Of a stretch of DNA of 64,000 nt, positions 24,157 through 42,505 are shown in pieces. Within the stretch, counting starts at the first letter, position 1. Each line of letters begins with the position of its first letter. The stretch spans positions 1,472,420 to 1,536,419 of the forward strand of contig JAXLQV010000003.1 in the NCBI GenBank assembly GCA_046331465.1, written 5' to 3'. The notes under the pieces are model-generated. The model was not told the origin of the DNA. It saw only the letters and a list, made by a program, of their open reading frames with translations, and made no database searches. Position numbers and translations under genes: made by a program. This stretch comes from Thermoanaerobaculia bacterium. GTDB lineage: Bacteria; Acidobacteriota; Thermoanaerobaculia; UBA5066.

Positions 24157-24876
24157 ATGAACGTGAAAGACCCGAGATTCCCGGCCGCGGCGGGCGCGGT
24201 CCGCCTCGTCTTCGGCATCCTCGTCATCGTCGCGGGACTCCTCTTCACCCTCGACAACTTCGGCCTCGTCTCGGCGCGGTTCCTCCTCCGCCTCTGGCCG
24301 GCCGCGCTCGTGGCGGTCGGCCTGACGAAGGCGCTCCAGAGGAAGGGCTTCTGGAACGGCTTCTGGGGGTGGGTCCTCGCCCTCGCCGGGACGCTCCTCC
24401 TCCTCGACAACCTGAACGTCCTCCGCTTCCCGGTCTGGAAGCTGACGCCGCTCATCCTCGTGGCGCTCGGCATCCGGCTCGTGCAGAAGGCGGGGGGAAG
24501 GACGTTCCCCGATCGGACCGTCGAGAACCGGACGGCGGCGACGCTCGACGAGACGGCGATCTTCGGCGGCTGGGACCGCTCGATCACGACGAACGAGTTC
24601 CTCGGCGGGGAGATCAACGCGCTCTTCGGCGGCTTCGAGCTCGACCTGTCGGCCTGCCGGATCCCCGACGACCAGGCGACGGTCACCGTCTTCGTCGCCT
24701 TCGGGGGAGGAGACATCCGCGTCCCGCGCGACTGGAACGTCGAGGTGCGCGCCTTCGCGATCTTCGGCGGGACCGACGACAAGAGCGCCCACCCCGCCCC
24801 CGAGGGAGACGTTCCGCCGAAGAAGCTCGTCATCGACGGGTTCGTCGTCTTCGGCGGCCTCGACGTGAAGAACTGA
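24157..24876 (+). CDS. LiaF-like membrane protein (N-terminal TM segments + C-terminal DUF2154-like beta domain)
   Basis: Three TM helices then repetitive FGG...DL...V strands as in LiaF C-terminal domain. Confidence 0.5.
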   Translation: MNVKDPRFPAAAGAVRLVFGILVIVAGLLFTLDNFGLVSARFLLRLWPAALVAVGLTKALQRKGFWNGFWGWVLALAGTLLLLDNLNVLRFPVWKLTPLILVALGIRLVQKAGGRTFPDRTVENRTAATLDETAIFGGWDRSITTNEFLGGEINALFGGFELDLSACRIPDDQATVTVFVAFGGGDIRVPRDWNVEVRAFAIFGGTDDKSAHPAPEGDVPPKKLVIDGFVVFGGLDVKN

Positions 24877-24877
24877 C

Positions 24878-25942: not shown

Positions 25943-26676
25943 CGTTCCGCGTCGTCGTCGTCGACGACGAGGAGCTCGCCCGGGGCGTCGTCCGCGAGCA
26001 CCTCGCCGCGCACCCCGACGTCGCGGTCGTGGCCGAGTGCGCGAACGGCCCCGAGGCGATCGAGGCGGTCGCGGCCCACGCCCCCGACCTCGTCTTCCTC
26101 GACGTCCAGATGCCCCGCCTGACGGGCTTCGAGACGCTCGAGCTCCTCGAGCCGCGGCCCGCCGTCGTCTTCGTGACGGCGTACGACCGGTACGCGGTGA
26201 GGGCGTTCGAGGTGAACGCGGTCGACTACCTCCTGAAGCCCTTCTCGAAGGAGCGCTTCGACGCCGCGCTCGCGCGGGCGCGGGGCCTCGCCGCCTCGGG
26301 GGCGCGGGGGCCCGATCCGGTCGCCCTCGCGGCCGCGGCGCGGCCCGACGGGGCGCCGCCGGAGCGGATCGCGGTCCGCGACGGGACGCGCGTGACGCTC
26401 GTCCGCGTGGACGACGTCGAGTGGGCGAAGGCCGAGGACGACTACGTCCTGATCCGGGCCGGCGGGAGGAGCCACCTGAAGCACCAGGCGCTCGCCGACC
26501 TCGAGCGGCAGCTCCCCGCCGAGCGCTTCGTCCGCGTCCACCGCTCGTGGATCGTGAACGTCGCTCGGCTCGTCTCCCTCGAGGAGGGGAAAGCGGCGCG
26601 GATGGCCGACGGGGAGAGGATCCCGGTCAGCCGGACCGGCGCGGCGCGCCTCCGCGAGCGGCTCCCGAGGGGCTGA
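25939..26676 (+). CDS. LytR/AlgR-family response regulator (REC + LytTR)
   Basis: VVVVDDEELAR...DLVFLDVQMP receiver; C-terminal LytTR-like RVHRSWIVN; GTGA overlap with kinase. Confidence 0.8.
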   Translation: MTFRVVVVDDEELARGVVREHLAAHPDVAVVAECANGPEAIEAVAAHAPDLVFLDVQMPRLTGFETLELLEPRPAVVFVTAYDRYAVRAFEVNAVDYLLKPFSKERFDAALARARGLAASGARGPDPVALAAAARPDGAPPERIAVRDGTRVTLVRVDDVEWAKAEDDYVLIRAGGRSHLKHQALADLERQLPAERFVRVHRSWIVNVARLVSLEEGKAARMADGERIPVSRTGAARLRERLPRG

Positions 26677-26782: not shown

Positions 26783-28192
26783 CTAGACGATCTTCCGGAT
26801 CGCGAGCAGCGCGGCCACGCCGATGAGGACCGCGAGGAGCGCGAGGCCGCGGAACGAAAGGGACGGGATCGCCGCGTCACCGACGACGAGCGCCGTCGGG
26901 TCCTGCCCGCCCGGCCGGCCCGGGTCGTCCGTCAGCGCGGTCGCTTCGTTCGTGCCGTCGCCGTTCGCGTCGTAGGAGATCGAGCCCTGGTTGCTGAGCA
27001 CCAGCCCGGCCGAGCCGAAGCCGATCGTGGCGTGGATCGTGATCGTGACGCTCCCGCCGCCGGGAATCGAGCCGTTCCACGTGACGGTGTTCGTCGCGAC
27101 CGTCGCCAGGGCGGTCCCGGAGGTCGCGCTCGCGCTCACGAGGACGAGCCCCGTCGGGAGGACGTCCGTGAACTCGTCTCCCGGGTTGTCGAGCTGCGCC
27201 GTCGCCGCGCTGTTCGACAGGACCACCGTATATGTGACCGCGCCGCCGGGCGTGAACGAACCGGCGACCGACTTCGTGCCCGTCAGGGTCGCCGGCGACA
27301 GCGACTGGTAGCAGACGATGACCTCGCCGTTGCCCGGCCGGACGTCGTTCTGCGTGCTCCCGCCCGTGACGCCGCTCGTGTCCGAGCTGCCGCCCGCGCC
27401 GCCGCCGCCGCCGCCCTTGTCGTTCCCGCCGCAGCCCGTCGTTCCCGCCGAGCCGGCGCCGCCGCCGCCTCCCTGGACGAATCCGCCGCCGCCTCCTCCT
27501 CCTCCCGACTGGCCGTTGGTACAGCAGCAGGCCTGCCCGTTGCCGCCGTTGGGAACCGTGCCGGGCTGCCCGAGGAAGCCCCCGCAGCCGACCCCTGCGG
27601 CACCGCCGACGCCCAGCGTGCCGCCGAAGCCGCCGCCCCCGGACGGGCTCGTGGCGCCGTTTCCGCCGGGAAGCCCGCCGCCGCCGCCGCCGGCACCACC
27701 GGCCGGGAAGGCGAGGCCGTCGGCCTGGCAGCCGTTCTGGCCGCCGCCGCCGCCGCCGCCCGCCGTCAGGACCCGATTCGCCAGAGCGTTGCCGCCGGCG
27801 CGGACGTCCGAGGCGCCGCCGCCGATCCCGCCGCCGATCGTTCCGCCCGTGCCGGCGCCGTTGAACGTGTTCCCCTGTCCGCCGACGTAGATGTAGAGAG
27901 TCTGTCCGGCCGTGACGGCGAGCGAGCCGGTCGCGTAGCCGCCCAGTCCGCCGACGCCCGCCGCGCTCCCGGTGGCCGCGGCGCCCTGGGCGCCCCACGC
28001 GTGGATCGTGACGGTCGAGGCGTTCGCGGGAACGACGAACTGCTGCTCGGCGCCGGTGAAGGAGAACGTCTGGCTCGTGAATCCTGCCGGGCAGCTGGGC
28101 TGCGCCGCTGCACCCGCCGCGCCGACGACGAGGGCCGCCGCGCCGAACGCCGCGACCCATCCCACTGCACGATCCAGCTCGTCTCGTCTCAT
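26783..28192 (-). CDS. Glycine-rich secreted repeat protein with DUF11-like region and IPTL/PEP-CTERM-like C-terminal sorting signal
   Basis: Signal peptide; long GGxGG tracts; C-terminus IPSLSFRGLALLAVLIGVAALLAIRKIV (motif + TM + basic tail); AAGGAGG RBS. Confidence 0.6.
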   Translation of the reverse strand: MRRDELDRAVGWVAAFGAAALVVGAAGAAAQPSCPAGFTSQTFSFTGAEQQFVVPANASTVTIHAWGAQGAAATGSAAGVGGLGGYATGSLAVTAGQTLYIYVGGQGNTFNGAGTGGTIGGGIGGGASDVRAGGNALANRVLTAGGGGGGGQNGCQADGLAFPAGGAGGGGGGLPGGNGATSPSGGGGFGGTLGVGGAAGVGCGGFLGQPGTVPNGGNGQACCCTNGQSGGGGGGGGFVQGGGGGAGSAGTTGCGGNDKGGGGGGAGGSSDTSGVTGGSTQNDVRPGNGEVIVCYQSLSPATLTGTKSVAGSFTPGGAVTYTVVLSNSAATAQLDNPGDEFTDVLPTGLVLVSASATSGTALATVATNTVTWNGSIPGGGSVTITIHATIGFGSAGLVLSNQGSISYDANGDGTNEATALTDDPGRPGGQDPTALVVGDAAIPSLSFRGLALLAVLIGVAALLAIRKIV

Positions 28193-28549
28193 CCCATCCT
28201 CCTTGCGGCATCCTCGACGCCCGTCGTGCGCGAGCCGCCAGCTGCGAATGCGGCCACCGCACGAGGGAACCTGCGCCCGAATGTCGCGGCGATGATAGCG
28301 GCCCGCAGAGGGAACGAGGAAGCCGATTCCGCCTCCGGCCCCCCCGAAAGGCCCGTCGCCGCCGCGCCTCTCCCGCCCCGTTTCAGGCGAGCCGGAGCCC
28401 CGCCCTGCCTCCCGGTGGATAATCCGCCCGCGCGTCCCCGGAGCGCCCGGAGCGCGTCCCGCGGCTTTCGCGGAGGCTCGGAACGCGCGCCCGGAAGAGG
28501 AGTGCCGCAACGGGCTCCGGGGAGGTCCCGGAGCGAGGAGGGTCCGACG

Positions 28550-29998
28550 ATGCCCGTGCCCCCGAACCTCCCGCCGAAGACCCTCCGCGTCGGGGTCCTC
28601 TCCCGCCTCGCGTCGGCGCGACCCTGGGAGATCCACGACCACGTCACGGCGCTCGCGCTCATGCAGGTCTACGAGACGCCCTTCAGCTCGCCCCCGGACG
28701 GCGGCGCGCCGAAGCCGGAGCTCTTCGCCGAGCCCCTCCGCCAGGACGGCGACCCCCTCACCCTCTCGGCCGCGGTGCGGCCCGGGGCCTCCTTCTCGGA
28801 CGGCACCCCCTGCACCGCCGCCGCCGTCGCGACGTCGCTCGCGCGGGTGCGCGACGTCTCCGCGCGCGCCGACGTGAAGACCCGGAACGAGCGCGTCGAG
28901 TTCCGCCTCCGGGCGCCCGACCCGCACTTCGCGACGATCCTGACGAACCCGTTCTGCGGCGTGGCCCTCGAGAGCCGGGGAGCGCTCCTCGGCACCGGCC
29001 CCTTCCTGCCGCCCGAGCCGCTCGAGGGCGACGACGTGGTCCGGTCCGGCAAGGTCCTCCTCCGCGCGAACCCCCGGGCGGCGAAGGTCCCCGCGCTCGG
29101 CGGCGTCCTCTTCGAGGTCTATCCCGACGCCGAGGCCCTCCTCGCCGCCGTCCACGCGGGCGACGTGCACGTCACGTACGCCCTCACGTTCTCCCACCTC
29201 GCGAAGCTCCGCGGCGCCCCGGTCTACCCGAAGACGCTCGACGGCAGCAGCACCGGGATCCTCTTCCTCAACGTCGAGCGCCCGGCGATGTCGGACCCGC
29301 GCCTCCGGCGCGCCCTCTGCTCCGCCGTCAGCCGGACCGAGATCGCCCGCGTCAGCTATGGACCGCTCGGAATGGGCTTCGCGGCGGCCGGTCTCCTCCC
29401 CCCGTTCCTGAAGAGGGACGTGCCCGTGGGAGCCGTCGACGGGAGCCCGGTCCAGGGGCGGCAGCTCCTCGCGGAGGCGGGCATCACGGCGCCGGAGCGC
29501 CTGACCCTCGTCCTGACGTGGGGCCCGAAGCCCTACATGCCTGACCCGCCGGCCGTGGCGAAGACGCTCATCGAGAGCTTCCGGCCGCTCGGCATCGAGC
29601 TCACGATCGTCCAGCCCCGCGACCGGGGGGAGTACGTCGGGCACCTCGAGCGCGCCGACTACGACCTCCTCCTCGGCGGGTGGATCGCCGACACCCCCCT
29701 CGCGTCCGACTTCGTCGACTCGCTCCTCCTCTCGACGATGGTCACCTCGCGGACGGCGCCGCGGGCGGCCGCCTACAACCTCTCGCGCTGGCAGGACCCG
29801 GCGACCGACCGGGACCTCGAGAAGTTCCGGAAGAGCCAGGACGTCCGGGACCTCGCCCCGATCGCCCGGACGGTCCACGAGCAGGGGCTCCTCGTCCCGC
29901 TCCTCCACGGCAAGCTGATCGCCGTCTCCCACAGGGACACGCGGCGGTTCGTGCCGTCGGCGCTCGCCCGCTCGTACTTCGGCGAGATGGAGGTCTAG
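28550..29998 (+). CDS. ABC-transporter substrate-binding protein family 5-like (no obvious signal peptide)
   Basis: SBP_bac_5-like architecture inferred from overall pattern; weak domain call. Confidence 0.4.
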   Translation: MPVPPNLPPKTLRVGVLSRLASARPWEIHDHVTALALMQVYETPFSSPPDGGAPKPELFAEPLRQDGDPLTLSAAVRPGASFSDGTPCTAAAVATSLARVRDVSARADVKTRNERVEFRLRAPDPHFATILTNPFCGVALESRGALLGTGPFLPPEPLEGDDVVRSGKVLLRANPRAAKVPALGGVLFEVYPDAEALLAAVHAGDVHVTYALTFSHLAKLRGAPVYPKTLDGSSTGILFLNVERPAMSDPRLRRALCSAVSRTEIARVSYGPLGMGFAAAGLLPPFLKRDVPVGAVDGSPVQGRQLLAEAGITAPERLTLVLTWGPKPYMPDPPAVAKTLIESFRPLGIELTIVQPRDRGEYVGHLERADYDLLLGGWIADTPLASDFVDSLLLSTMVTSRTAPRAAAYNLSRWQDPATDRDLEKFRKSQDVRDLAPIARTVHEQGLLVPLLHGKLIAVSHRDTRRFVPSALARSYFGEMEV

Positions 29999-30103
29999 GG
30001 GCGTGCGCGCGGAGCGTCTTCGGGCCGGGAACCGCCCGCGCTCGGCTAGACTGGCGGGAGGACCCCGTTCGCGGCGTTGGCCCGCCGGGAGGGAGAGCCG
30101 TTC

Positions 30104-30502
30104 ATGAAGCTGAAGAAGGTCCTGATCGTCGACGACTCCGAGCTCGTCCACAAGATGCACGGGCTGGTCCTGCAGCGGTACCAGAAGTGCGAGGTCCTCC
30201 ACACGTACGACGGGAACCAGGCGCTCGAGGCTCTGAGCCGGAACCCCGACGTCCAGCTCATCCTCCTCGACATCAACATGCCGGTGATGGACGGTCTCCG
30301 CTTCCTCGAGGTCCGCAAGCAGACGGGACTCTTCACCGACATCCCCGTCATCATCATCTCCACGGAGGGGCGCGAGGACGACACGGCGCGCGGGATGGCC
30401 CTCGGGGCGACCGGCTACGTCAAGAAGCCGTTCCGCCCCGCGCAGCTGCACGCGATCATCGACGGCCTCTTCGACAGCCGGAGCGGACCCGGGGAGCCAT
30501 GA
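30104..30502 (+). CDS. cheY: CheY-like single-domain response regulator
   Basis: KVLIVDDSELV...ILLDINMPVMDG...GATGYVKKPF. Confidence 0.85.
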   Translation: MKLKKVLIVDDSELVHKMHGLVLQRYQKCEVLHTYDGNQALEALSRNPDVQLILLDINMPVMDGLRFLEVRKQTGLFTDIPVIIISTEGREDDTARGMALGATGYVKKPFRPAQLHAIIDGLFDSRSGPGEP

Positions 30503-30545
30503 GGAGCGGGAGCTCCGCGGCGCCGCCGGCTCGCGGAGGGCGCCG

Positions 30546-32213
30546 GTGACGACGGCCGAGTTCCAGGAGATCCTGGACGACTACCTCTCGTCGACGCGGG
30601 AGCTCCTGGAAAAGGCCGAGGCGACCCTGCTCGAGGCCGAGCGCGCCGAGGCCGCGCTCACGCCGGACGACCTCGCGGGCCTCAAGCGCGTCTTCCACAC
30701 GCTCAAGGGGAACTCCGGGATGATGGGGTACGACGCGGTCGCGCGGGCCGCGCACGTCATGGAGGACGCCCTCGTCGCGGTCGGCGGCGGCGACGCCGCC
30801 GAGGACGAGGAGGTCGTCGTCCTCCTCCTCTCGGCGATCGGCATGATCTCCCCGGCGTTCCGCTCGGGCGAGGTCCCCGAGACGATGCCGGCCGACTGGG
30901 CCGCGGCGCTCTCGGGCCTCGAGCGGGTCGCCTCCGAGGCCGGGAGCGCGCCGCACGCCCGCCCCGCCGCCGGGGCGCCCGCCGCGGACGCCGCCGCCCG
31001 GGGCATCCTCGCGGGGAGGTCCCGGTCCCTCCGCGTGAGCCACGCGAGCCTCGAGAGGCTGCTCGAGCTGACCGGCGAGATGAACGTCCTCCTCGCGGGC
31101 GTCGCCGAGCGGCTCCGGAGGATCGCCGCCCGCACGCCCTCGGACGAGGCCGCGGCCGCGACCGAGAGCCTCGAGCTCCTCCTGCGGACGTTCGGCCTCC
31201 TCGAGCGCGAGGTCTTCGCGACGCGGCTCGTCCCCGTCGAGACGGTCTTCGCCCGGTTCCGGCGCCTCGTGCGCGACCTCTCGCTCGAGCTCGGCAAGGA
31301 GGTCGACGTCGTCGTGGAAGGGGGCGCGACGACGTTCGACAAGTCGATCGTCGACGAGCTCGCCGAGCCGCTCGTCCACCTCGTGCGGAACGCGGTCGAC
31401 CACGGCATCGAGAGCCCCGCCGAGCGGGAGGCGAAGGGGAAGCCCCGGCGCGCGACGCTCACCCTGGCCGCCCGGCAGGCCTCCAGCCTCGCCGAGGTCG
31501 CCGTCCTCGACGACGGCGCCGGCATCGACCTCGAGCGGGTCCGGCGGCGCGCCGCGGAGATGGGGATCGCCACCGACGAGCTGGACGAGGGCGCGGTCCG
31601 CGACCTCGTCTTCCTCCCGGCCTTCTCGACCCGCCAGGGGGTCAGCGCAATCTCCGGGCGCGGCGTGGGGCTCGACGTCGTGAAGGCGTCGGTCGAGAGG
31701 CTCGGCGGCTCCGTGCAGCTCCGTTCCGCGCCGGGGCGCGGGACGGAGTTCCGCCTCGCATTCCCCCTGACGCTCGCCGTCTCGGACGCCCTCCTCGTCG
31801 CCGTCGACGGAGAGACCTACGCCCTCCCGGTCAGCTTCCTCGAGGAGACGGTCCGCCTCGAGGAGGGGGAGCTGCACCGGGTCGCCTCGCGCGGCGTGAT
31901 CCGCTTCCGCGAGCGCCTCGTGGCCGCGGTCGACGCCGGGGCCTTCCTCGGGACGGGCGCGCCGGGCCGGGGCGGGCGCCGGTTCGCGTCGATCCTCTCG
32001 GGCGGCGGCCGCCAGAAGGCGCTCCTCGTCGACCGCCCCCTCGAGACGCGCCGGATCGTCGTGAAGCCGCTCGACGAGTCGCTCGGCCGGCCGCTCGGCC
32101 TCTCGGGGGCGACGCTACTGGGCGACGGCCGGATCGTGATGATCCTCGACGCGGTGGGGCTCCTCGACGCGCACGTCGAGAGGCTCCAGGCCGCCGCGGG
32201 AAGGGAGCTCTGA
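30546..32213 (+). CDS. cheA: Chemotaxis histidine kinase CheA (HPt-dimerisation-HATPase-CheW-like)
   Basis: [12 protein letters not shown]t, HATPase G-boxes, C-terminal CheW-like domain. Confidence 0.9.
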
Positions 32214-32215
32214 GG

Positions 32216-32773
32216 ATGGACGCGAAGAAGGAACGTCCGGGCGACGTCGTCCCGGGGGCTCCCGGGGCCGACGGCACCGTCGACCTCCTCGCCTTCGCGG
32301 ACTGGGTCTCCGCGGGCCAGCGGAGGCGCGCCGCGGACCACGCCGCGGAGGAGAAGACCTACGTCGCGTTCCGGCTCGACCGCGAGGAGTACGGGCTCCC
32401 GGTCGAGAGCGTGCGGGAGATCCTGCGCCTCGGCGAGACGACCCGCGTCCCGCAGGCCCCGCCGCACATCCGCGGCCTGATGAACGTCCGCGGGAGCATC
32501 CTCCCGGTCGTCGAGATCCGGACGCGCATCGGCCTCGCCCCGCTCGACCCCGGGCCGAGCGCCCGCGTCGTCGTCCTCGAGGTCGGAGAGCGGGCCCTCG
32601 GGCTGCTCGTCGACCGGGTCACGCGCGTGGCGAAGGTGAGGGCGTCCGAGATCGAGCCGCCGCCGGCCGAGGTCGTCACGGCGCGGACGGACTACGTCGT
32701 CGGCGTGGCGAAGCGGCCCGAGGGCCTGCTCGTCCTGCTCGACCCCGGCAAGACCCTGGTCGTGAAGGCATAG
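32216..32773 (+). CDS. cheW: Chemotaxis coupling protein CheW
   Basis: CheW-like domain ([15 protein letters not shown]...[16 protein letters not shown]). Confidence 0.85.
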
Positions 32774-32802
32774 GAGGTCAACATGACGCGGGAGGAGAGG
32801 GC

Positions 32803-35082
32803 ATGATTTCGTTCCGGAGCCTTCGCGCGCGCCTCGTCGTCTGGTTCCTTTTGGCGGTCGTCCCGCTCGCCGGCTTCGGCGTCTTCAGCCACGTCCGCGT
32901 CCGGTCGTCGATGCGCGAGCTCGTCGGGACCGACTTCCGCGACCGGGCGATGTCGACCGCCGACAAGATCTCCCGGAACCTCTTCGAGCGCTACGCCGAC
33001 GTCGTCGACCTCGCCGAGAACCCCGTCCTGGCGTCGTCGAAGAGCACCGCGGAGCAGAAGAGCGCGGTCCTCCGGAACTTCTTCGACAACCGCGCGCCCG
33101 TTTACTCCTCCATCGTCCTCGCGGATGCCGCGGGGAAGGTCATTGCGGCGTCGGACGCGGCGCTCCTCGGCGGGAACGAGGCGAAGTCGGACTGGTTCGT
33201 CGAGGGGCAGGGGGGCGACCCGTGGTACTCGCCCTCCGTCGCCCGCGACGAGAAGTCGGGCGGGCCCGTCGTCACGTTCTCCTGGCGCGTCGAGGAGGCG
33301 GGCTCCAGCCGCGTCCTCGGCGTCGTCGGCGCGCGGGTCGACTACGGCGCCCTCTTCTCCGAGAACCTCGTGAAGAAGGAGACGTTCGGGAAGACGGGCG
33401 AGATCCTGGTCGTCGACAAGAAGTCCGGGTCGGTCCTCTGCTCGAAGGACGTCGCGGCGATCCTGAAGGCGACCGTCTCGAATCAGCCGGCGTTCCAGCT
33501 GGCGCAGAAGTCCACGCACGGCTTCACGACGCAGGTCGACCCGTCGAACGGAAAGATGTACGCGGTCGGCTGGGCGACCGAGCAGGGCTTCTCGATCTTC
33601 TCGGGGCAGCGCGTCCTCGTCCTCGTGCGGCAGGAGGCCGACGAGGCGTTCAAGACGCTGGACGAGCTCTTCCTGACGTTCCTCGTCGCGCTCGCGATCG
33701 CAGCGGGCGCCGTCGTCGTCCTCGCGTTCCGCGTCTCGCAGGCCGTCTCCCGGCCGCTCCTCGCCCTCGTCGACGTCGCCGAGGGGATCGCCCGCGGCGA
33801 GCTCGCGGACGTGCCGGAGCAGGGGCGGAAGGACGAGATCGGGCGCCTCTCGCGCGCGATGCGCGGGATGGTCGCCTACCTGCGCGAGATGGTCGACGCG
33901 GCGGACCGCCTCGCCGACGGCGACCTCCGCGCGACCCCGGCCCTGCGCGGCGACACCGACGCGTTCGGCCGCGCCTTCGTGAGGATGGTCACGACGCTGC
34001 GCGACCTCCTCTCGCGCCTCCGCGACGCCTCGCAGCAGGTCGCGATCTCGGCCGAGGAGATCTCGGCCTCGGCCTCGTCGATCCAGCGCGGCGCCGAGTC
34101 GCAGGCCGCCTCCTCGGACGAGACCTCCTCGACGCTCGTCGAGATGGCCGCGCAGATCAGCGCGGTGGCCCAGAACACCCAGGCGCTCGCGGCGAACGTC
34201 GAGGAGACGGCCGCCTCGATCCAGGAGATGGGGACGCTCGTCCAGAGGACGGCCCGCAACTCCGAGGTCCTCCTCGAGGCCGTCGACGAGACGACGCGGA
34301 CGCTCCAGGAGATCCACGGCGCGATCCAGACGGTCGACGAGAAGGTCCGCACCGTCGACGAGGTCTCGCGGACGGCGGTCGGCGACGCGAACGACGGCGG
34401 CGGGCTCCTGCAGGGGACGATCCGCTCCATCGGCGAGAAGTCGCAGGGCGTCGGCAAGATCGTGAAGGTCATCGAGGCGATCGCCGACCAGACGAACCTC
34501 CTCGCGCTGAACGCGGCCATCGAGGCTGCCCGGGCGGGCGACGCGGGGCGCGGCTTCGCCGTCGTCGCGGACGAGGTGAAGAAGCTCGCGGAGCGCTCGG
34601 CGCGCGCAACCGAGGAGATCGCGGGCGTCATCGAGGCGATGCAGAAGGACGTGCAGAGCGCCGTCGACATGACGGCCGGCGTCCTCGGGAGCATCCTCGG
34701 CTCGGTGCAGAAGGCGTCCGGCATGGTCGCCGAGGTGCACCGCCTCACGCAGGAGCAGTCGAGCGGGGCCGTGAAGGTCCTCTCGGTGGCCGAGCGGATC
34801 AGCGACGTGTCGCGGCAGGTCTCCACGGCGGCCCAGGAGCAGGCCGCCGGGAGCCAGCAGATCCTGAAGGCCGTCGCGAGCATGAACAGCATGACGCAGC
34901 AGGTGGCGGACGCCACCGTCGAGCAGAAGAAGGGGGGCGACATGGTCGTCCGCGCCATGGAGACGATCGCGTCGGTGGCGCGCGCGAACCTCTCCGCCGT
35001 CGAGGAGCTCACCCGCGCCTCGACGGACCTGGCCCGCGAGGCCGAGAGCCTCCGCCAGCAGCTCGAGTCCTTCCGGGTCTGA
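32803..35082 (+). CDS. Methyl-accepting chemotaxis protein (periplasmic Cache-like sensor, HAMP, MA domain)
   Basis: TM-sensor-TM-HAMP, conserved [31 protein letters not shown] signalling hairpin. Confidence 0.9.
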
Positions 35083-35098
35083 AGAGGAGGGCCGACCG

Positions 35099-37126
35099 AT
35101 GCGCGCGACGACGAAGGAGACGGCGACGAAGCAGCGGCTCGCCGCGGCGCGCGAGTGGTGCCGGGACTCGGACCCTCTCGCGCGCGGGCGGGGCCTCGAG
35201 CTCGCCGCCCGGCTCGGCCGGCCCGGCCAGGACCTGATCTGGGCCGCCCTCGAGGACCGCGACGCCGCGACCCGGCAGGCCGCGATCCGCCTCGCGGCGC
35301 GCCGGGTCCCGGCCGCGCGCCTCCTCGACGGGGTCGCGAACCCGGCGAACTCCGTCCTCCGGACGGCGTGCATCGACGCCCTGAAGCTGAAGGGGCCCTC
35401 GGCGATCCCGGTCCTCCGGCGGGGAACCGTCTCGGAGGACCCGGACGTCGTCCTCTTCACGCTGCAGATCCTCGGCGCCATGCCCGAGGAGGACGTGGCG
35501 CCGATCCTCCTCGGATTCCTCTCGCACCCCGACCTCAACATCGCGCAGGCGGCGGTCGAGAGCCTCGGCGACCTGAAGTGCCGGAAGGCCGTCGGCCCGC
35601 TCCTCGAGCTCCTCGAGGGGGACCTCTGGCTCCGCTTCGCGGCGATCCTCGCGCTCGGGCGGATCGGCGACGCGCGCGCGACGCTCGAGCTCCTGAAGCT
35701 CACGGGGGACGACTCGCTCGGCACGACCGCGCTCGAGGCGATCGGGCGGATCGGCGACCCGTCCGCGATCGAGCCGCTCTGCCGCGAGCTCGTCCGCGAG
35801 GACCGCTTCCCGCAGCGGGACGCCATCCTGACCGCGATCGGGGAGTGCCTCGCGAGGGCCGGCGGCGAGGTGCCGCGGCTTCGCGACCCCGAGGCCGCGG
35901 CCGCGCTCCGGAGGGACCCGTTCCGCCGCTACCTCCGCGAGGGGCTGGCCTCGGAGACCCCGGAGCTCCGCGCCGCCGCGAACCGCCTCGTCGCCGCCTA
36001 CGGCGACGAGACGCTCTACCCGGGTCTCGTCGAGCACCTCGACGAGCCGGCGCTCGCCTCCGGGACCGTCTCGTTCCTCGGCTCCCTCCCGGAGGCGAAG
36101 GGCGCGCGGGAGCTCCTGCAGGCCGCCGCCTCGCACCCGCGGCCCGCCGTCAGGTCCGCCGCGCTCCGGGTCCTCGGCCTCCGTTCGGAAGCCTGGGGCG
36201 ACGCGATCATCGCGGAGAAGCTCACCGACGCCGACCCGGGCGTCCTCGCGAACGCGGTCCGGTCGCTCGCCCGGAGGCTCCCGGAGGGGGCCTTCGAGAA
36301 GGTCCTCCCGCTCCTCTTCCACGCGAGAGAGGAGGTCCGCAACCGCGCCCTCGAGTCCCTCCCGTACCTGGCGCGCCCGACGGACGTCGCGCTCCTCGAG
36401 CGGCTCCTCCTCGAGACCGAGCCGGGAGAGCGGCTCCTCGCCTACGTCGAGGTCTCGCGCCGCCTCGAGAGGGGACCGTTCGTCGGGGCCTGGCTCTCCC
36501 GGATCCCCGGGGCGCCGCCGGACCTCCTGCGCGGGCTCCTCCGGGCGCTCAGCGAGGAGACCGGCCCGGAGGTCACGGCGAGCCTCCGCCCGCTCCTCGA
36601 CCACCCCGAGCCGGCGATCCGGACGCTCGTCATCGAGTGCCTCGCCCACCCCGCGAACGCCGCGGAGATCGGCCCGCTCCTGAAGGCCCGCCTCCGCGCC
36701 GACCCCGAATGCGTCTACTACGTCGTCCGCGCGCTCGGCCGGCTGCGCTACGCCGCGGCCGCCGGCGACCTGATGGCGTTCTACCCGTCCGCGGCGCCGC
36801 TCGAGAAGGTCGCGATCGTCGAGGCCGTCGGCGCCCTGGGGACGCCGGAAGGGGCCCGGTTCCTCGAGGCCGAGCTGCAGGGGCGCGACCGCGAGCGGCG
36901 CCGGGCCGCGGCCGCCGCGCTCGCCAAGCACCACCGGGACGGGCGGCTCGCGACGTTCGCCCGGCTCGCGCGCGCGGAGGACTGGTCGCTCCGGAACACG
37001 GCGGCCTGGGCGCTCGGCGAGATCGGCTCGGACGACGCCGTCCCGGTCCTCCGCAAGCTGACGGCCGACCACGAGGAGGTCGTCGCCCGCACGGCGCGCA
37101 ACGCGCTCGAGAAGCTCGGGAGCTGA
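35099..37126 (+). CDS. HEAT/PBS-lyase repeat protein (Cpc7-like) embedded in che operon
   Basis: >12 repeats of the LGxIGDxxAxxxL type (e.g. ALGRIGDARATLELL, AWALGEIGSDDAVPVL). Confidence 0.75.
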   Translation: MRATTKETATKQRLAAAREWCRDSDPLARGRGLELAARLGRPGQDLIWAALEDRDAATRQAAIRLAARRVPAARLLDGVANPANSVLRTACIDALKLKGPSAIPVLRRGTVSEDPDVVLFTLQILGAMPEEDVAPILLGFLSHPDLNIAQAAVESLGDLKCRKAVGPLLELLEGDLWLRFAAILALGRIGDARATLELLKLTGDDSLGTTALEAIGRIGDPSAIEPLCRELVREDRFPQRDAILTAIGECLARAGGEVPRLRDPEAAAALRRDPFRRYLREGLASETPELRAAANRLVAAYGDETLYPGLVEHLDEPALASGTVSFLGSLPEAKGARELLQAAASHPRPAVRSAALRVLGLRSEAWGDAIIAEKLTDADPGVLANAVRSLARRLPEGAFEKVLPLLFHAREEVRNRALESLPYLARPTDVALLERLLLETEPGERLLAYVEVSRRLERGPFVGAWLSRIPGAPPDLLRGLLRALSEETGPEVTASLRPLLDHPEPAIRTLVIECLAHPANAAEIGPLLKARLRADPECVYYVVRALGRLRYAAAAGDLMAFYPSAAPLEKVAIVEAVGALGTPEGARFLEAELQGRDRERRRAAAAALAKHHRDGRLATFARLARAEDWSLRNTAAWALGEIGSDDAVPVLRKLTADHEEVVARTARNALEKLGS

Positions 37127-37133
37127 GGGGCGA

Positions 37134-38012
37134 GTGGAGGGCGGCGTCGCGTTCGCGCACCGGACGACCGGCATCCCGCCGATGACGGACGAGGAGTGCC
37201 ACCTCTTCTCGGACTTCGTCCGGGAGCGGTTCGGCCTCGACGTCTTCGCGGCGCACCGCGACCGCGTCCGCTTCCGGCTGAAGGAGCGCCTCGAGGCGCG
37301 GGCGATGACCTCCTTCCTCGAGTACTACCGCTTCCTCGTCCTCTCGCCGGACGCCGCGCAGGAGCTCCACTTCCTCGCCGAGGCGCTGACGAACAACGAG
37401 ACCTACTTCTTCCGGGAGCGCTACCAGCTCGACTGGTATTTCTCGGAGGTCCTCCCGCGGCAGGTCCGGGAGCGCCCGGCCGGGGAGCCGGTCCGCGTCC
37501 TCTCCGCCGGCTGCTCCTCGGGCGAGGAGGCCTACACCCTCGCGATCGTCCAGCACGAGAACCAGTTCCGCTGCTTCGGCCGCCCCGTCGAGATCCACGC
37601 GATCGACCTGAACCCGAGCCGGATCCGGCAGGCGGAGGAGGCCGAGTACGAGGGGCTCTCCTTCCGCGCGGCCCCGCCCGAGGCGAAGGAGAGGTACTTC
37701 ACCGCGACGGCGAAGGACGGGCGCCTCCGCCTCAAGGCCTGGCTGAAGGCGCCCGTGAAGTTCCGCGTCCTGAACCTGATGGAGCTCGGCAGCGGTTTCC
37801 CGGACGGGTACTTCGACGCGGTCTTCTGCCGGAACGTCCTCATCTACTTCAACGAGGCGACGCTCCAGCGCGCGACGGTCCTCTTCCACCGCGCCCTCCG
37901 CCCCCGCGCCCCGCTCTTCCTCGGCCACTCGGAGTCGCTCCTCGGGAAGACCCGCCTCTTCCGCCCGGAGCGGGCGCCCGACTTCATCTACTACGTGAAG
38001 GAGGAGAGGTGA
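37134..38012 (+). CDS. cheR: Chemotaxis protein methyltransferase CheR
   Basis: CheR N-terminal helical + SAM-binding VLSAGCSSGEE...CRNVLIYF; alternative ATG start at 37182. Confidence 0.85.
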   Translation: MEGGVAFAHRTTGIPPMTDEECHLFSDFVRERFGLDVFAAHRDRVRFRLKERLEARAMTSFLEYYRFLVLSPDAAQELHFLAEALTNNETYFFRERYQLDWYFSEVLPRQVRERPAGEPVRVLSAGCSSGEEAYTLAIVQHENQFRCFGRPVEIHAIDLNPSRIRQAEEAEYEGLSFRAAPPEAKERYFTATAKDGRLRLKAWLKAPVKFRVLNLMELGSGFPDGYFDAVFCRNVLIYFNEATLQRATVLFHRALRPRAPLFLGHSESLLGKTRLFRPERAPDFIYYVKEER

Positions 38013-39142
38013 CCGGCGCCGCGGGGGGCGGGACGCCGCGGAACGGCGCGAACGCGAGGGAGGCGCGCGTCCTCGTCGTCGACGACTCGACGTTCGTGAG
38101 GAAGGCGCTCCGGAAGGTCTTCGAGTCGCGCTCCGGGCTCACGGTCGCCGGCGAGGCGGGCGACGGCCTCGAGGCGGTCCGGATGTGCGGCGTCCTCGCG
38201 CCCGACATCGTCACGCTCGACATCCAGATGCCGGGGATGGACGGCCTCGCCGCCCTGAAGGAGATCAAGCGGCTCTGGCCCGACCTTCCGGTCCTCGTCC
38301 TCGCCTCGGCCGCGAGCAACGGCCCCGAGGTCGCCATGGAGGCGCTCGCCCTCGGCGCGTTCGAGTTCGTCGACAAGGGGCAGTTCCGGTCGATGGACTT
38401 CCAGATCATGGGGGAGGAGGTCGTCCGGAAGGTGAGGGCCGGCCTCGCCGCCTCCGCCCCGCCCCCCGCCGCCGAGCTCCCCGCCGCCCCGGTCCCGCCG
38501 CGGCCCGCCCGGCGCGCCGCGGGCCCGGGCCTGCCGAGGACGGACGTCGAGGCGGTCTGCATCGGCGCCTCGACCGGGGGGCCCGCCGCGCTCGGGACGA
38601 TCCTCGGCCGCCTCCCGGCGGGGTTTCCGTTTCCGATCGCCATCGTCCAACATATGCCGATGGGTTTCACGGCGGCTTTCGCCGAGAGGCTGAACCAGTC
38701 GTCGCGCCTCGAGGTCCGGGAGGCGCGGGGCGGGGAGGCGTTCCTGCCGGGCTGGGCGTTCCTGGCCCCCGCGGGCCAGCACCTCGTCTTCGAGGAGGGG
38801 CCCGACGGCGTCCGCGTCGAGCTCTCCGCGGAGCCTGCGGGCGGCTCGCACGTCCCCTCCGTCGACGTCCTCCTCGCGGCCGCGGCCCGGACGTTCGGGA
38901 GGCGCGCGATCGGGATCGTCCTCACCGGGATGGGAAGCGACGGGCGCGAGGGGGCGAAGGCGCTCGTGGCGTCCGGGGGGACGGTCGTCGCCGAGTCGGA
39001 GGAGAGCTGCGCCGTCTACGGCATGCCGCGCGCGGTCGTCGAGGCCGGCCTCGCGAGCGCGGTCTGGAGCGCCGACGAGATCGGGTCGGAGCTCCGGCGG
39101 ATGGCCGGGGCGCCGCCCGAGGAGGGAGGCGAGGACCGATGA
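38009..39142 (+). CDS. cheB: Protein-glutamate methylesterase CheB (REC + methylesterase)
   Basis: VLVVDDSTFVR...DIQMPGMDG receiver; IGASTGGP...HMPMGFT...GMGSDG esterase motifs; GTGA overlap with cheR. Confidence 0.9.
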   Translation: MTGAAGGGTPRNGANAREARVLVVDDSTFVRKALRKVFESRSGLTVAGEAGDGLEAVRMCGVLAPDIVTLDIQMPGMDGLAALKEIKRLWPDLPVLVLASAASNGPEVAMEALALGAFEFVDKGQFRSMDFQIMGEEVVRKVRAGLAASAPPPAAELPAAPVPPRPARRAAGPGLPRTDVEAVCIGASTGGPAALGTILGRLPAGFPFPIAIVQHMPMGFTAAFAERLNQSSRLEVREARGGEAFLPGWAFLAPAGQHLVFEEGPDGVRVELSAEPAGGSHVPSVDVLLAAAARTFGRRAIGIVLTGMGSDGREGAKALVASGGTVVAESEESCAVYGMPRAVVEAGLASAVWSADEIGSELRRMAGAPPEEGGEDR

Positions 39143-39945
39143 CGGATCCGAAGCCGCCCGAGACCTCCGAAGCCCTGCGGACCCTCTTCCGCTCCCTCGA
39201 GGAGCGGAGCCGCGGCATCGAGGACGACTTCCTCCGCCTCTACGACCAGCTCCGCATCCAGGTCGACGACCTGAGGCGCGACCTCGCGACGGCGGAGGCG
39301 CTCCTCGAGTCGACCCACGAGGAGACCCTCCGGGACCGGGAGAAGCTGAAGAAGAAGGCCGAGCAGCTCGAGGCCGAGAACCGCGACTTCGCCCAGCGCT
39401 ACGTCGACCTCGAGGACCACTCGACGAGCCTGACGAACCTCTACGCCGCCACGTTCCAGCTCCACTCCTCGCCCGACCCCGACGCCGTCGTGAGGACGAT
39501 CGTCGAGATCGCGGTGAACCTGATCGGCGCCGCCGAGTTCATCCTCTACCTCTCCGACGAGGCGAAGGGGGACTACTCCGTCGTCGCGCGGGAAGGGGAT
39601 CTCCCGCCCGCGGGACCGCGCCAGGCCGAGCTCGAGCAGGCGGTGGAGAAGGAGGCGGTCCGGCACCGGCGGACCGTCTTCCTCGAGGAGCTTCCGCCGA
39701 CGGGGCGGAGCGGTCTCTCCGACGCGATCTGCTGTGCCCCGCTCTACTTCCGCGACCGTCTCGTGGGCGCCCTGACGATCTACGCCCTCCTCGAGCACAA
39801 GGCGAGCTTCTCCCAGCTCGACCGCGAGCTCTTCGACCTTCTGGGTGAACAGGCCGCCCTCGCGATGGTCTCGTCGCAGGCCTACGTCGCCGTCGAGAGG
39901 AAGCTGAAGACCGTCCAGAGGTTCATGGACCTGCTGAAGACCTGA
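39139..39945 (+). CDS. Coiled-coil + GAF-domain protein
   Basis: N-terminal heptad-rich segment; GAF-like core IGAAEFILYLSD...CCAPLYFRDRLVGALTIY; ATGA overlap with cheB. Confidence 0.6.
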   Translation: MTDPKPPETSEALRTLFRSLEERSRGIEDDFLRLYDQLRIQVDDLRRDLATAEALLESTHEETLRDREKLKKKAEQLEAENRDFAQRYVDLEDHSTSLTNLYAATFQLHSSPDPDAVVRTIVEIAVNLIGAAEFILYLSDEAKGDYSVVAREGDLPPAGPRQAELEQAVEKEAVRHRRTVFLEELPPTGRSGLSDAICCAPLYFRDRLVGALTIYALLEHKASFSQLDRELFDLLGEQAALAMVSSQAYVAVERKLKTVQRFMDLLKT

Positions 39946-39947
39946 CC

Positions 39948-41225
39948 GTGACCGAAGTCTCGCAGACCCACGACAAGTCGACGAGCCTCGAGGGGCAGCT
40001 CGAGGACTTCCCGCTCACGGACATCCTCCAGGTCCTCCAGGTTGCCGGCAAGAGCGGAGCCCTGTTCCTCACGCGGGCGGACGGCGTGACCGGGATCGTC
40101 GTCTTCCGGAACGGACAGATCGTCCAGGCCCTCGCCAGCGACGCTCACGAGACCCTCGGCGACCGCCTCGTCAACAAGGGCAAGATCACGGCCGTCCAGG
40201 TGAACGAGGCGCTCGGCTACCGTGCCCGCTACCCCGGTATGCGCCTCGGCGACGCCCTGGTCGAGCTCGGCGTCACGCCGCGCCGGACCGTCGAGGACGA
40301 GGTCAAGGAACAGATGACGGAGGCGATCGAGCGGATGATGACCTGGGGCGACGCCCAGTTCGTCTTCCGGATCGGTCTCGTCTCCATGATGCGCGGGATG
40401 CCCGACTTCACGGTCGACCTCGTCCTCGACGAGGGGGTCGAGCCGCGCCACATCCTGCTCGAGGCGAGCCTTCTCCAGGACAAGCGCAACCGCGAGCTGG
40501 ACCGGATCCGCCGAAAGCTCGACGAGGGTGCCGCGGCTTCGCCGGCAGCGCCCCTCCCGGCGCCGGCGCGCCCTGAGGTGGTCCCCGCGCCGCGCCCGGC
40601 GGAGAAGAAGAAGGCGGAGTCGTCCCCGGCCGCCGACGAGGAGGCGGGACAGTCGATCCGCTGGTTCGACCCGGCGACGCCTCCGGGACCCGACCCCGAG
40701 GAGGCCGACAAGCTGCGGTCGGCCGTCAGCTTCCTCTCCCTCACGGAAGAGCTCTTCGCGGCGCAGGGGCGCGGCGAGATGGGGCTCCTCCTCCTCCGCT
40801 ACGCGAGCGAGCTCTACTCCGACGGGGGGCTCGTCGTCCGCGACAAGGAGACGTTCCGCCTCCTCGGCCAGTTCGGCCGGGGCATCGGGTGCTTCCAGCC
40901 GCGCGACCCGACACCGAAGACCTCCTGGACGACCGGGGAAAGCCCGCTCTTCGACCTGATCGTCAAGGACGGCCGGGCCTACAACGGCTTCGTGACGCCG
41001 ACGTCCCAGGGCGGGCTCGCGCCCGACCCGACGAACGGACCGGAGGCGCTCCCGGTCCTCGCGGTTCCCCTCCTCGTCCTCGGCAACGTCTCCCTGATCC
41101 TCGTCTGCCAGACGCCGTTCGAGAGGGAGTCCGAGGCGCGTGCCCTGATCGTCCTGGCGCGGCAGGTCGCCGTGACCCTCGAGAACCTCACGCTGAGGGA
41201 GGTCGCGCGGAGGATGCTCGCCTAG
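39948..41225 (+). CDS. DUF4388 (PATAN-like) domain protein
   Basis: N-terminal GQLEDFPLTDILQVLQVAGKSGALFL DUF4388 hallmark; Ala/Pro-rich linker; unknown C-terminal domain. Confidence 0.6.
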   Translation: MTEVSQTHDKSTSLEGQLEDFPLTDILQVLQVAGKSGALFLTRADGVTGIVVFRNGQIVQALASDAHETLGDRLVNKGKITAVQVNEALGYRARYPGMRLGDALVELGVTPRRTVEDEVKEQMTEAIERMMTWGDAQFVFRIGLVSMMRGMPDFTVDLVLDEGVEPRHILLEASLLQDKRNRELDRIRRKLDEGAAASPAAPLPAPARPEVVPAPRPAEKKKAESSPAADEEAGQSIRWFDPATPPGPDPEEADKLRSAVSFLSLTEELFAAQGRGEMGLLLLRYASELYSDGGLVVRDKETFRLLGQFGRGIGCFQPRDPTPKTSWTTGESPLFDLIVKDGRAYNGFVTPTSQGGLAPDPTNGPEALPVLAVPLLVLGNVSLILVCQTPFERESEARALIVLARQVAVTLENLTLREVARRMLA

Positions 41226-41270
41226 GAGGACGCGTCGCGCCGCGCGCGCAGCGCCGCGCGGGGAGCGGCT

Positions 41271-41774
41271 TCAGCCCTCGGGGCCGGAGAGGAAGTCGGC
41301 GACGATCTTCGCGACCGAGGTGGAGTTCCACTCGGCCTCGGCCATCTTCACGACCACGTCCACCGTCGACCCGCCGGCTCGCTCCGCGAGGAGCGTGGCA
41401 GTCGCCTTGAAGCGGAACCTCTCGCGGCCGCCCGTGTCGAGGCAGGAGACGTTCAGCGCGACGTAGTGAGGCTCCCGGTCGCTGTTCGTGTAGTGGAACG
41501 ACCAGGTCGTCGTGACGATTCCGGGCCCGGCCGAGCGGTCGGCGACCTGCTTGACCTCGAGCGCCGTGAGCGCGGCGTTCCAGTCGCGGCCGGCGTACGA
41601 CGCGTCCTCGAGGGCGACGCGCCCCCCTTTCGCGATCCGGGTGCGGATCGATGCGCGCGTCCAGACGGTCGCGAGGAGGGGCGCCGCCAGGAGGAGCGCG
41701 AGGAGGGCCGCGGCGGCGCGCGTCGCGAGCCTTCCTCCCGCGATGCCGGCGGGGTTCGGTCGGAGGACCTTCAC
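41271..41774 (-). CDS. Hypothetical exported/membrane-anchored protein
   Basis: Signal/anchor AAAALLALLLAAPLLA; no recognised domain. Confidence 0.4.
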   Translation of the reverse strand: MKVLRPNPAGIAGGRLATRAAAALLALLLAAPLLATVWTRASIRTRIAKGGRVALEDASYAGRDWNAALTALEVKQVADRSAGPGIVTTTWSFHYTNSDREPHYVALNVSCLDTGGRERFRFKATATLLAERAGGSTVDVVVKMAEAEWNSTSVAKIVADFLSGPEG

Positions 41775-41803
41775 GGCGGCGGACTATAGCCCAGGGGCGC
41801 CCC

Positions 41804-42505
41804 TCAGCGTGCGCCGGCGCGCCTGAGCATGGCGTCGAGGACCGCCTTCGAGACGCCCTGCTTCTTCAGCTTCACGAGGGCGTCCGAGGAGACGTCGAGC
41901 GCCTCCCGGGGGGCCTGCTGGATCTTCGCGACCACGAGGTCGTCTCCGAGATCCGCCTTCACCATCGCCACGACGTCGGCGTTCGTGAGGGCCTTCTCGC
42001 CCTGGCCGCCCGGGGGCGGAGCGCCCTGCGCGGCGCCGGGGCCCTTCTCGGGCGGCGCCTCCCGTCCCGCGGGGGGAAGCGACGAGCGGGCCCGGCTCAT
42101 CCCCTCCTTGAAGCAGGGGTTCCACTCGGCCCGCTTGAAGGAGGCCTTCACCGGGATGCACTCGTCGTCGCAGCAGTCGTAGACGAACGTCGCGAGGTCG
42201 GCCGGGTCCATCCAGGCATCCGCCATCAGGGCGGAGTCGGGCTTCGGGTAGAGGACGCGGACGCGGCCGTTCTCCTCGAAGAACTCGTAGACCGTCGCGA
42301 GAAACTCCTTGTGGAAGCCGGCCACGGCGTCGCCCCGCCGGAACGTCCGCTTCACGGCGGTGCCCGACCCGTCCTCGTAGCCCGGCGCTCCGTCGCGGAT
42401 CACGAGCGCCCCCTCGCCCTTCCGCTGGCCGCCCGGCTGGGCGAGCGCGAAGCCGCTGGCCAGGACAAGCGCGACCAGGAAGAGCCTTCCGAGCCCGAGC
42501 CTCAT
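41804..42505 (-). CDS. Hypothetical secreted protein (Cys-containing, Gly/Pro-rich linker)
   Basis: Signal peptide LFLVALVLASGFALAQP; CCDDEC motif; no recognised domain. Confidence 0.45.
   Translation of the reverse strand: MRLGLGRLFLVALVLASGFALAQPGGQRKGEGALVIRDGAPGYEDGSGTAVKRTFRRGDAVAGFHKEFLATVYEFFEENGRVRVLYPKPDSALMADAWMDPADLATFVYDCCDDECIPVKASFKRAEWNPCFKEGMSRARSSLPPAGREAPPEKGPGAAQGAPPPGGQGEKALTNADVVAMVKADLGDDLVVAKIQQAPREALDVSSDALVKLKKQGVSKAVLDAMLRRAGAR

Follow-up and report, generated by a model that had tools for sequence, protein, structure and literature searches.

A coiled-coil GAF protein and a receiver-less PATAN-GAF protein as a conserved pair and candidate output module of chemosensory gene clusters in Acidobacteriota

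Introduction

To our knowledge, most non-flagellar chemosensory systems have no known output, and we know of almost no experimental signalling biology in the Acidobacteria, which are abundant soil bacteria. Here we ask what the last two genes of a nine-gene chemosensory (che) operon in a soil-type Acidobacteria genome contribute to such a system. The operon occupies positions 30104-41225 of a stretch of 64,000 nucleotides (nt; the window) of contig JAXLQV010000003.1, from a bacterium of the Thermoanaerobaculia, a class within Acidobacteriota. Seven genes, cheY-cheA-cheW-mcp-HEAT-cheR-cheB, are followed by one for a coiled-coil GAF protein (ccGAF) and one for a DUF4388 protein (PATAN-GAF). DUF4388 (PF14332) is the same as PATAN, the PatA N-terminal domain, which is found in cyanobacterial PatA-type regulators. 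The answer towards which we lean is that a complete Che pathway with a HEAT-containing core of the Che7 type would use ccGAF and PATAN-GAF as a dedicated output or adaptor device downstream of CheA/CheY. The two proteins and their parts, all on the plus strand, are as follows.

39139-39945, plus strand: ccGAF protein, 268 residues (Pfam GAF_2, 2.5e-13; AlphaFold2 (AF2) model with a predicted local distance difference test score (pLDDT) of 78.7; Foldseek)
39160-39468, plus strand: predicted helix of about 100 residues in ccGAF, residues 8-110 (AF2)
39475-39873, plus strand: GAF domain of ccGAF, residues 113-245 (Pfam, Foldseek)
39898-39939, plus strand: conserved C-terminal helix of ccGAF carrying RKLKTVQ, residues 254-267 (conservation across phyla)
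39948-41225, plus strand: PATAN-GAF protein, 425 residues (Pfam DUF4388, 2e-21, 76.7 bits; AF2, pLDDT 71.6; Foldseek)
39978-40532, plus strand: PATAN/DUF4388 domain, residues ~11-195 (Pfam, AF2)
40152-40313, plus strand: MshEN-like tandem 24-residue motif, candidate cyclic di-GMP (c-di-GMP) site, residues 69-122 (phmmer against the PDB, NCBIfam NF053729)
40536-40694, plus strand: disordered linker rich in Pro, Ala and Glu, variable in length, residues 197-249 (AF2, family alignment)
40695-41222, plus strand: cryptic C-terminal GAF fold (alpha/beta), residues 250-425 (Foldseek on the AF2 model)

Conservation of the pair in chemosensory clusters

Loci were sampled with an alignment of the PATAN-GAF protein, run against a single genome of each species, and all six-frame open reading frames (ORFs) of 84 loci (L001-L084) were searched with the nine window proteins. 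Counts refer to the 44 loci in which the PATAN gene is flanked by 3 kb or more on each side, and to a close family (n = 25). At least two che core genes are present in 41/44 loci, an adjacent GAF gene in 35/44 and a HEAT gene in 17/44; the close family has che core genes in 23/25, the adjacent GAF gene in 24/25 and a HEAT gene in 4/25. The HEAT protein is therefore not a constant partner of the pair.

The surrounding che genes are arranged in several ways. The window type, Y-A-W-MCP-HEAT-R-B-GAF-PATAN (MCP, methyl-accepting chemotaxis protein), occurs in L001/2/8, L007, L009, L010, L024 and L040, and the same nine-gene order is found at ~70% identity in metagenome-assembled genomes (MAGs) of Holophagales and other Acidobacteria. 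Two cluster types lack HEAT: [REC]-PATAN-GAF-CheY-GAF2-CheD-CheA-MCP-CheW-...-CheR-CheB, where REC is a receiver domain (L003 and ten others), and GAF2-CheD-CheA-x-MCP-MCP-CheW-CheR-CheB-GAF-PATAN (L005 and fourteen others). Vicinamibacteria and other Acidobacteriota have A-W-MCP-HEAT-R-B-PATAN-GAF, L044, 45, 47, 50 and 51 have PATAN-CheY-CheA-CheW-...-HEAT-CheR-CheB, and GAF-PATAN-CheY-GAF-CheW-CheA... is found in Myxococcales/Polyangiaceae MAGs. Some Thermoanaerobaculia loci have a second PATAN-GAF paralogue, or a short additional PATAN ORF immediately upstream of the main one (L012:9908-11245 and 15107-16612; the 10 kb region of L014 and L016).

Across 51 loci the similarities of GAF and PATAN to their window counterparts co-vary (Spearman rho 0.90) and are unrelated to the similarity of CheB or CheA (rho 0.01 and -0.18), these being values uncorrected for phylogeny. 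The two vary together and independently of CheA and CheB: they behave as a single module that has been joined to different che cores. Judged by gene neighbourhood and co-variation, ccGAF and the PATAN protein are a conserved, co-evolving and co-operonic pair in che clusters of several architectures, which bears out a preliminary description of this DNA that had taken the two genes as operon members and plausible output modules. It is extremely improbable that they are functionally unrelated passengers downstream of a che operon. Such a view could appeal to the ribosome-binding region of the DUF4388 gene, where no obvious Shine-Dalgarno-like sequence precedes the start codon; however, the start codons overlap the preceding stop codons or follow them after 2 nt, no terminator signal intervenes, and the adjacency to che genes in 41/44 loci holds in at least two phyla and through several gene orders.

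The coiled-coil GAF protein

A coiled-coil GAF protein had been proposed at this position from the start, and both parts of that assignment hold: AF2 predicts the ~100-residue helix and Pfam finds GAF_2. The best Foldseek matches of the predicted model are GAF domains (E 6e-8), the top one being a GAF domain with bound cyclic AMP (cAMP). Conservation within the protein is strongest in the helix that leads into the GAF domain (LYAATFQLH) and in the C-terminal RKLKTVQRFMDLLK. All GAF genes next to PATAN encode the tail, RKLxT(V/L)Q, whether in Thermoanaerobaculia, Vicinamibacteria or Polyangiaceae; the ccGAF of a metagenome contig (L088) has a weaker RKLRTLE form. A second GAF paralogue, next to CheY/CheD, lacks this tail. 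It is likewise a coiled-coil GAF protein, is encoded directly upstream of cheD (L003:12446-13204; also L005 and L012-L039), and in the HEAT-less cluster types takes the position usual for cheC.

Two other identities for these proteins were considered and rejected. The coiled coil of ccGAF matches the NCBIfam model of HmpF at 17.8 bits against a cut-off of 200 and was treated as coiled-coil composition. A bilin-lyase function, suggested by a HEAT_PBS protein beside a GAF protein with an invariant Cys-Cys, was dropped: HEAT is absent from most pair-carrying loci, the Cys-Cys is not kept in Vicinamibacteria or Polyangiaceae orthologues, and no heme oxygenase or bilin genes lie nearby.

The PATAN-GAF protein and its missing receiver

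The PATAN domain of the window protein aligns with that of PATAN-REC relatives at an hhalign probability of 99% and, in the AF2 model, contains the helical insertion (helices at 70-130). No Response_reg match was obtained by Pfam, and only a disordered linker of ~55 residues is found where REC would be. PATAN-GAF therefore resembles the output half of a PatA-type regulator, yet falls outside that family. Its C-terminal domain has no Pfam match; its Foldseek matches are GAF structures (E 1e-5, TM-score 0.5-0.65 on the target). A search with this domain among 1.84 billion representatives, aimed at REC-containing architectures, returned 20 matches, all from its own family, and the full-length relatives all come from Holophagales, Thermoanaerobaculia or Acidobacteriota MAGs.

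More distant PATAN proteins at the equivalent operon position include a PATAN-REC protein with ~230 further residues (L054), a PATAN-REC protein with a weak GAF match (L045) and a PATAN-REC protein (L072), as well as a PATAN-x-GAF architecture (L043, L088). The receivers of L054, L045 and L072 keep the acidic pair and the phospho-acceptor Asp; the Lys is kept in L054 and L045 and is an Arg in L072. These distant PATAN-REC-(GAF) proteins are predicted to be direct substrates of CheA. The C-terminal region of L054 aligns with the C-terminal domain of the window family at an hhalign probability of 68% (E 4.7e-5).

The nearest functional comparison is with the cyanobacterial Tax/Pix systems, in which Synechocystis PixG and PixE are PATAN-REC proteins. 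There the PATAN domain alone binds the N-terminus of PilB1 as well as PilC's N-terminal domain, and is sufficient for output (bioRxiv 10.1101/2021.06.11.447907). In both systems a chemosensory cluster encodes a PATAN protein and, separately, a CheY, and the PATAN domain has a helical insertion. GAF domains also belong to both, although in PixJ the GAF is placed in the receptor. By contrast, the window PATAN protein lacks REC and ends in a GAF fold, and the window adds a neighbouring coiled-coil GAF partner, CheR, CheB and a HEAT protein.

A candidate c-di-GMP site in the PATAN insertion

The MshEN domain of MshE (PDB 5HTL) binds c-di-GMP through a 53-residue tandem motif (Wang et al. 2016, PMC5013675), which consists of two 24-residue RLGxx(L/V/I)(L/V/I)xxG(L/V/I)(L/V/I)xxxxLxxxLxxQ motifs with a 5-residue spacer (PMC5013675). 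Residues 68-122 of PATAN-GAF match the N-terminal regions of PilF 6f8l (3.7e-4) and MshE 5htl (8e-3) in a phmmer search of the PDB, residues 69-122 being aligned to the binding tandem motif. NF053729 ("c-di-GMP_motif, MshE-related") scores 36.9 bits on the window protein against a cut-off of 38, and 25/25 aligned family members match it, the best of them at E 9e-11. Four helices are predicted in the insertion. Whereas in MshE/PilB-type ATPases the motif sits at the N-terminus, here it lies inside the PATAN domain.

Motif II (R99-Q122), RLGDALVELGVTPRRTVEDEVKEQ, fits the published pattern. Motif I is degenerate, with Thr, Ser or Pro in place of Arg1 and Arg, Leu or Met in place of Gln24, and the spacer has 6 residues instead of 5. 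Given an intact motif II with a degenerate motif I and a longer spacer, c-di-GMP binding by the PATAN insertion is possible, not established.

The chemosensory core

The seven genes upstream of the pair, and the presumed promoter region, are the following.

29999-30103, plus strand: presumed promoter region of the operon, 105-nt intergenic (sequence)
30104-30502, plus strand: cheY, single-domain response regulator, 132 residues (Pfam Response_reg, 8e-25)
30546-32213, plus strand: cheA, 555 residues (Pfam Hpt with the HTLKG histidine, HATPase_c, CheW-like)
32216-32773, plus strand: cheW, 185 residues (Pfam CheW, 4e-34)
32803-35082, plus strand: mcp, 759 residues (Pfam dCache_1, HAMP, MCPsignal; hydropathy; tip motif)
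35099-37126, plus strand: HEAT/PBS-lyase-like repeat protein, 675 residues, in the place that Cpc7 takes in che7-type clusters (Pfam HEAT_2, 8e-52, 6 stretches; HEAT_PBS, 5e-14)
37134-38012, plus strand: cheR methyltransferase, 292 residues, with an alternative ATG start at 37182 (Pfam CheR, 7e-45)
38009-39142, plus strand: cheB methylesterase with N-terminal REC, 377 residues (CheB_methylest, 2e-59; Response_reg, 1e-23)

The nine co-directional genes of the preliminary description are all present and fill 30104-41225, with the expected domain content by Pfam and junctions between -4 and 43 nt. The G+C content of the window is ~73%, and the frames are unambiguous by third-position GC analysis (GC3 = 0.94-0.99 in the called frames). 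cheR and cheB overlap by GTGA and cheB and the GAF gene by ATGA. The latter overlap had been noted before; the gap between the GAF and DUF4388 genes, given then as 3 nt, is 2 nt, and the remaining non-overlapping gaps measure 2-43 nt. Upstream, 105 nt separate cheY from the preceding SBP_bac_5 gene, and downstream a convergent gene lies at 41271-41774 on the minus strand. A scan of 29500-41900 for promoters and intrinsic terminators found no sigma-70 consensus in the upstream region or inside the operon, and 5 weak terminator-like sites against 2.6 expected by chance; as a whole the scan was uninformative.

CheY keeps the DD pair, the phospho-acceptor Asp and the Lys when aligned with other REC domains. 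In CheA the P2 domain was not detected by Pfam, and matches to the NCBIfam CheA models (2e-98) stay under their equivalog cut-offs. The MCP is built of a first transmembrane (TM) segment, a periplasmic dCache_1 domain, a second TM segment, HAMP and the signalling domain, with the hairpin tip near residue 580; its heptad class of ~48H is a rough estimate from arm lengths and is not used as evidence. The HEAT protein contains ~13 HEAT-like units by a crude repeat profile, which makes its description as a large protein with more than 12 repeats plausible. All Pfam matches lie well above the gathering scores, and the components of a Che pathway with methylation-based adaptation are present. By its domain content the operon encodes a complete chemosensory pathway with adaptation, comprising the receptor, kinase and adaptation set.

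The cheB gene is disrupted in one of two near-identical Holophagales MAGs: at L001:8071-9195 it is called as a 239-residue REC-only product and split in two ORF fragments. The sister MAG, L002, has an intact cheB of 374 residues, and the split may be a frameshift or an assembly error.

Relation to Che7 and to other HEAT-containing clusters

The Che7 system of Myxococcus xanthus offers the closest known gene order, and Darnell and colleagues are said to have found in 2014 that CheY7 binds Cpc7. The che7 tags run from MXAN_6965 to 6959 and comprise CheY7 (6965), CheA7, CheW7, Mcp7, 6961, CheR7 and CheB7 (6959) (PMC3945109), and the system has been summarised as HEAT-repeat-protein-associated, coupling aggregation to sporulation (PMC9040617). 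A cluster of Hyalangium gracile (L085) encodes a REC protein of 125 residues, CheA (686), CheW (145), an 848-residue protein, HEAT (784), CheR (274) and CheB (345). The first seven window genes, Y-A-W-MCP-HEAT-R-B, stand in identical order to both, so the gene order is common to the window and to these clusters. Like Che7, the window system has a HEAT/PBS-lyase-like protein between mcp and cheR, one CheY, a CheA without P2, and CheR plus CheB. The host belongs to a different phylum, Acidobacteriota and not the myxobacteria; judged by gene order, the Che7-type core is not confined to myxobacteria.

The likeness to Che7 claimed in the preliminary description thus stands for the gene order; protein similarity, however, is modest and the receptor is of a different type. 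Mcp7 has no TM and no HAMP region (PMC3945109); the window receptor is transmembrane and has two TM segments besides dCache_1 and HAMP. The window CheA is 555 residues long against 683-686 in Che7 systems, and the window operon runs on into the ccGAF and PATAN-GAF genes, which are absent from the Hyalangium cluster. The HEAT protein matches that of Hyalangium at 28% identity over 81% of the query (98 bits), with the reservation that repeat proteins match each other readily. CheA scores 288 bits against a HEAT-type cluster (L086) and 165 bits against Hyalangium, and the MCP 340 bits against L087 and 104 bits against Hyalangium; the window is more similar to HEAT-containing che clusters of other uncultured bacteria than to myxobacterial Che7. 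Related HEAT proteins were found in or beside che clusters in 6/6 contexts examined, and HEAT proteins of this kind are therefore a recurrent che accessory.

These comparisons open a different view of the pair, in which the operon is a Che7-like alternative-function system, HEAT is the sole output of phosphorylated CheY (CheY-P), and ccGAF and PATAN-GAF sit on the input side, sensing c-di-GMP or some other small ligand in the cytoplasm and modulating the receptor-CheA array. The identity of the gene order with che7, a system tied to a HEAT-repeat protein (PMC9040617), agrees with this, as do the classical role of GAF domains as small-ligand sensors, the cAMP-bound GAF as top fold match, the MshEN-like motif as a candidate c-di-GMP site, and the absence of linkage to a motility motor. 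Yet the pair is mostly kept without HEAT (21/25 close-family loci), the REC domain of PATAN relatives marks phosphotransfer targets and not inputs, the most conserved parts of ccGAF are helices and the C-terminal tail and not the ligand pocket, and the only known PATAN biochemistry is that of an output domain. We consider the sensor view unlikely, though worth keeping in sight.

The HEAT protein also bears on the relation to motility. In Halobacterium the HEAT_PBS protein OE2401F is encoded in the che region and acts with CheY-interacting proteins downstream of CheY. It shares with the window protein the HEAT_PBS repeats and the location in a che gene region; it is archaeal, however, has CheF (DUF439) and the archaellum as its partners, and lies much further away in sequence, and no orthology is claimed. 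Because a HEAT_PBS protein acts downstream of CheY in Halobacterium motility, the presence of HEAT is no indicator of a non-motility role. The earlier label of the operon as a non-motility system finds no support either way: PATAN is the domain by which cyanobacterial PatA-type regulators bind the type IV pilus motor, and a HEAT_PBS protein couples CheY to the archaellum in Halobacterium.

Linked flagellar or pilus motor genes, which the preliminary description had named as the sign of a conventional motility system, were looked for in the 64-kb window and none was found. A conventional flagellar chemotaxis system could draw on the full CheA/W/Y/R/B/MCP set with a periplasmic sensor domain and on the HEAT_PBS protein between CheY and the archaellum in Halobacterium, but neither the window nor the annotated related loci contain a flagellar gene, no CheZ, CheC/X or FliM-type partner is present, and HEAT and PATAN are accessories typical of systems that are pilus-linked or serve alternative functions. 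This identity is very unlikely.

A model for the pair as an output device

In the output or adaptor reading that we prefer, the transmembrane dCache receptor would sense a periplasmic ligand and control CheA through CheW; CheA would phosphorylate CheY and CheB, and CheR together with CheB would reset the receptor. ccGAF and PATAN-GAF would pair through their GAF or helical parts, a complex that we infer because both have GAF folds and conserved helices. The pair would act downstream of CheA/CheY, where it is placed because its relatives carry REC and because the PATAN domain alone is the output domain in Synechocystis. In the window lineage REC is missing and the signal would therefore have to arrive in trans, by way of CheY-P, possibly relayed by the HEAT protein, and the MshEN-type motif in the PATAN insertion may add a c-di-GMP input. 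Since PATAN is the pilus-motor-binding domain of cyanobacterial PatA-type regulators, an output or adaptor role is the most likely one for the pair. By analogy with the cyanobacterial PatA-type regulators, its target would most likely be a type IV pilus or a type II secretion system (T2SS)-like ATPase/platform, the weakest step of the model.

Several observations weigh against the model. The window protein is without REC, the very domain that makes PatA-type regulators pathway outputs. By sequence its C-terminal domain is confined to its own family (20 matches among 1.84 billion), and the homology of this domain to REC-containing relatives is only moderately supported. For c-di-GMP, motif I is without the Arg and Gln that matter for binding in MshE, the spacer has 6 residues, and the NCBIfam score falls just under the cut-off. 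The rho values behind the co-variation of the pair carry no correction for phylogeny. A search by Walker A regular expression found no GspE/PilB/PilT-type ATPase within 10 kb in the 84 loci and none in the window, and a PilC-like T2SSF query found a T2SSF gene in one locus only, L088.

This last locus, on a peat-type metagenome contig (L088:2859-17401), reads REC-ccGAF-PATAN/GAF-CheA-CheW-HEAT-CheR-CheB-MCP-HEAT. Its PilC/GspF-type T2SSF gene starts 154 nt after the che cluster on the same strand; no other gene of a pilus or secretion type was seen beside any such cluster.

Already described are Che7 and its HEAT protein, the PatA-type regulators of cyanobacterial Tax systems, and MshEN. Searches of the literature on DUF4388/PATAN with chemosensory systems turned up no mention of a coiled-coil GAF partner, of a PATAN-GAF protein without REC, or of the pair in Acidobacteria che clusters. 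The present locus ties together three strands that are usually kept apart, namely Che7 and HEAT, PatA-type regulators, and MshEN c-di-GMP receptors. Che7-type cores recurrently recruit a PATAN protein with or without a receiver plus a dedicated coiled-coil GAF partner, a pair that behaves as a mobile module common to different che cores. In its fullest and most tentative form, the proposal is that ccGAF and the REC-less PATAN-GAF might be a heteromeric, c-di-GMP-gated output device, widespread among Acidobacteriota and found also in some Myxococcota, that puts a type IV pilus or T2SS-like machine under the control of Che7-type and other cores. Were this true, HEAT-type 'alternative function' Che systems would gain a defined output, and a new accessory Che protein pair would be defined.

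Surroundings of the operon

The remaining window contains a division and cell wall (dcw) cluster, from mraZ to ftsZ, and genes for a HAMP-SpoIIE phosphatase, a cardiolipin-synthase-like phospholipase D (PLD) protein, a sulfatase, a two-component pair, a porin and an ABC-2 transporter. At 24163-26676 a three-gene set encodes a LiaF-like membrane protein, a LytS-type His_kinase and a LytTR response regulator, and is placed between an Hsp70-like gene and the gene of a glycine-rich protein. The latter (26786-28300, minus strand) is a secreted protein with a signal peptide, long poly-Gly tracts, DUF11 and a C-terminal hydrophobic anchor, and its gene is antisense to a long spurious ORF on the plus strand.

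An orphan secretin of 655 residues is encoded at 47816-49780 on the minus strand. Its N-terminal region has two DUF333 matches, its weak matches to the PilQ, GspD and MshL models are all far under the cut-offs, and no pilMNOP or gsp genes adjoin it. At the right end of the window, a tRNA-Arg (61080-61157, plus strand) is followed by a phage-type integrase (61323-62609, plus strand) and then by a DDE insertion sequence (IS) transposase (62865-63809, minus strand). The G+C content falls to ~0.67 across 61080-63809, against 0.73 elsewhere in the window, and this segment is probably the edge of an integrated element. Near the left end, at 3157-3603, lies the gene of an Hfq-related protein that is unusually long (148 residues), with an Sm-like core at residues 65-118 and an N-terminal extension.

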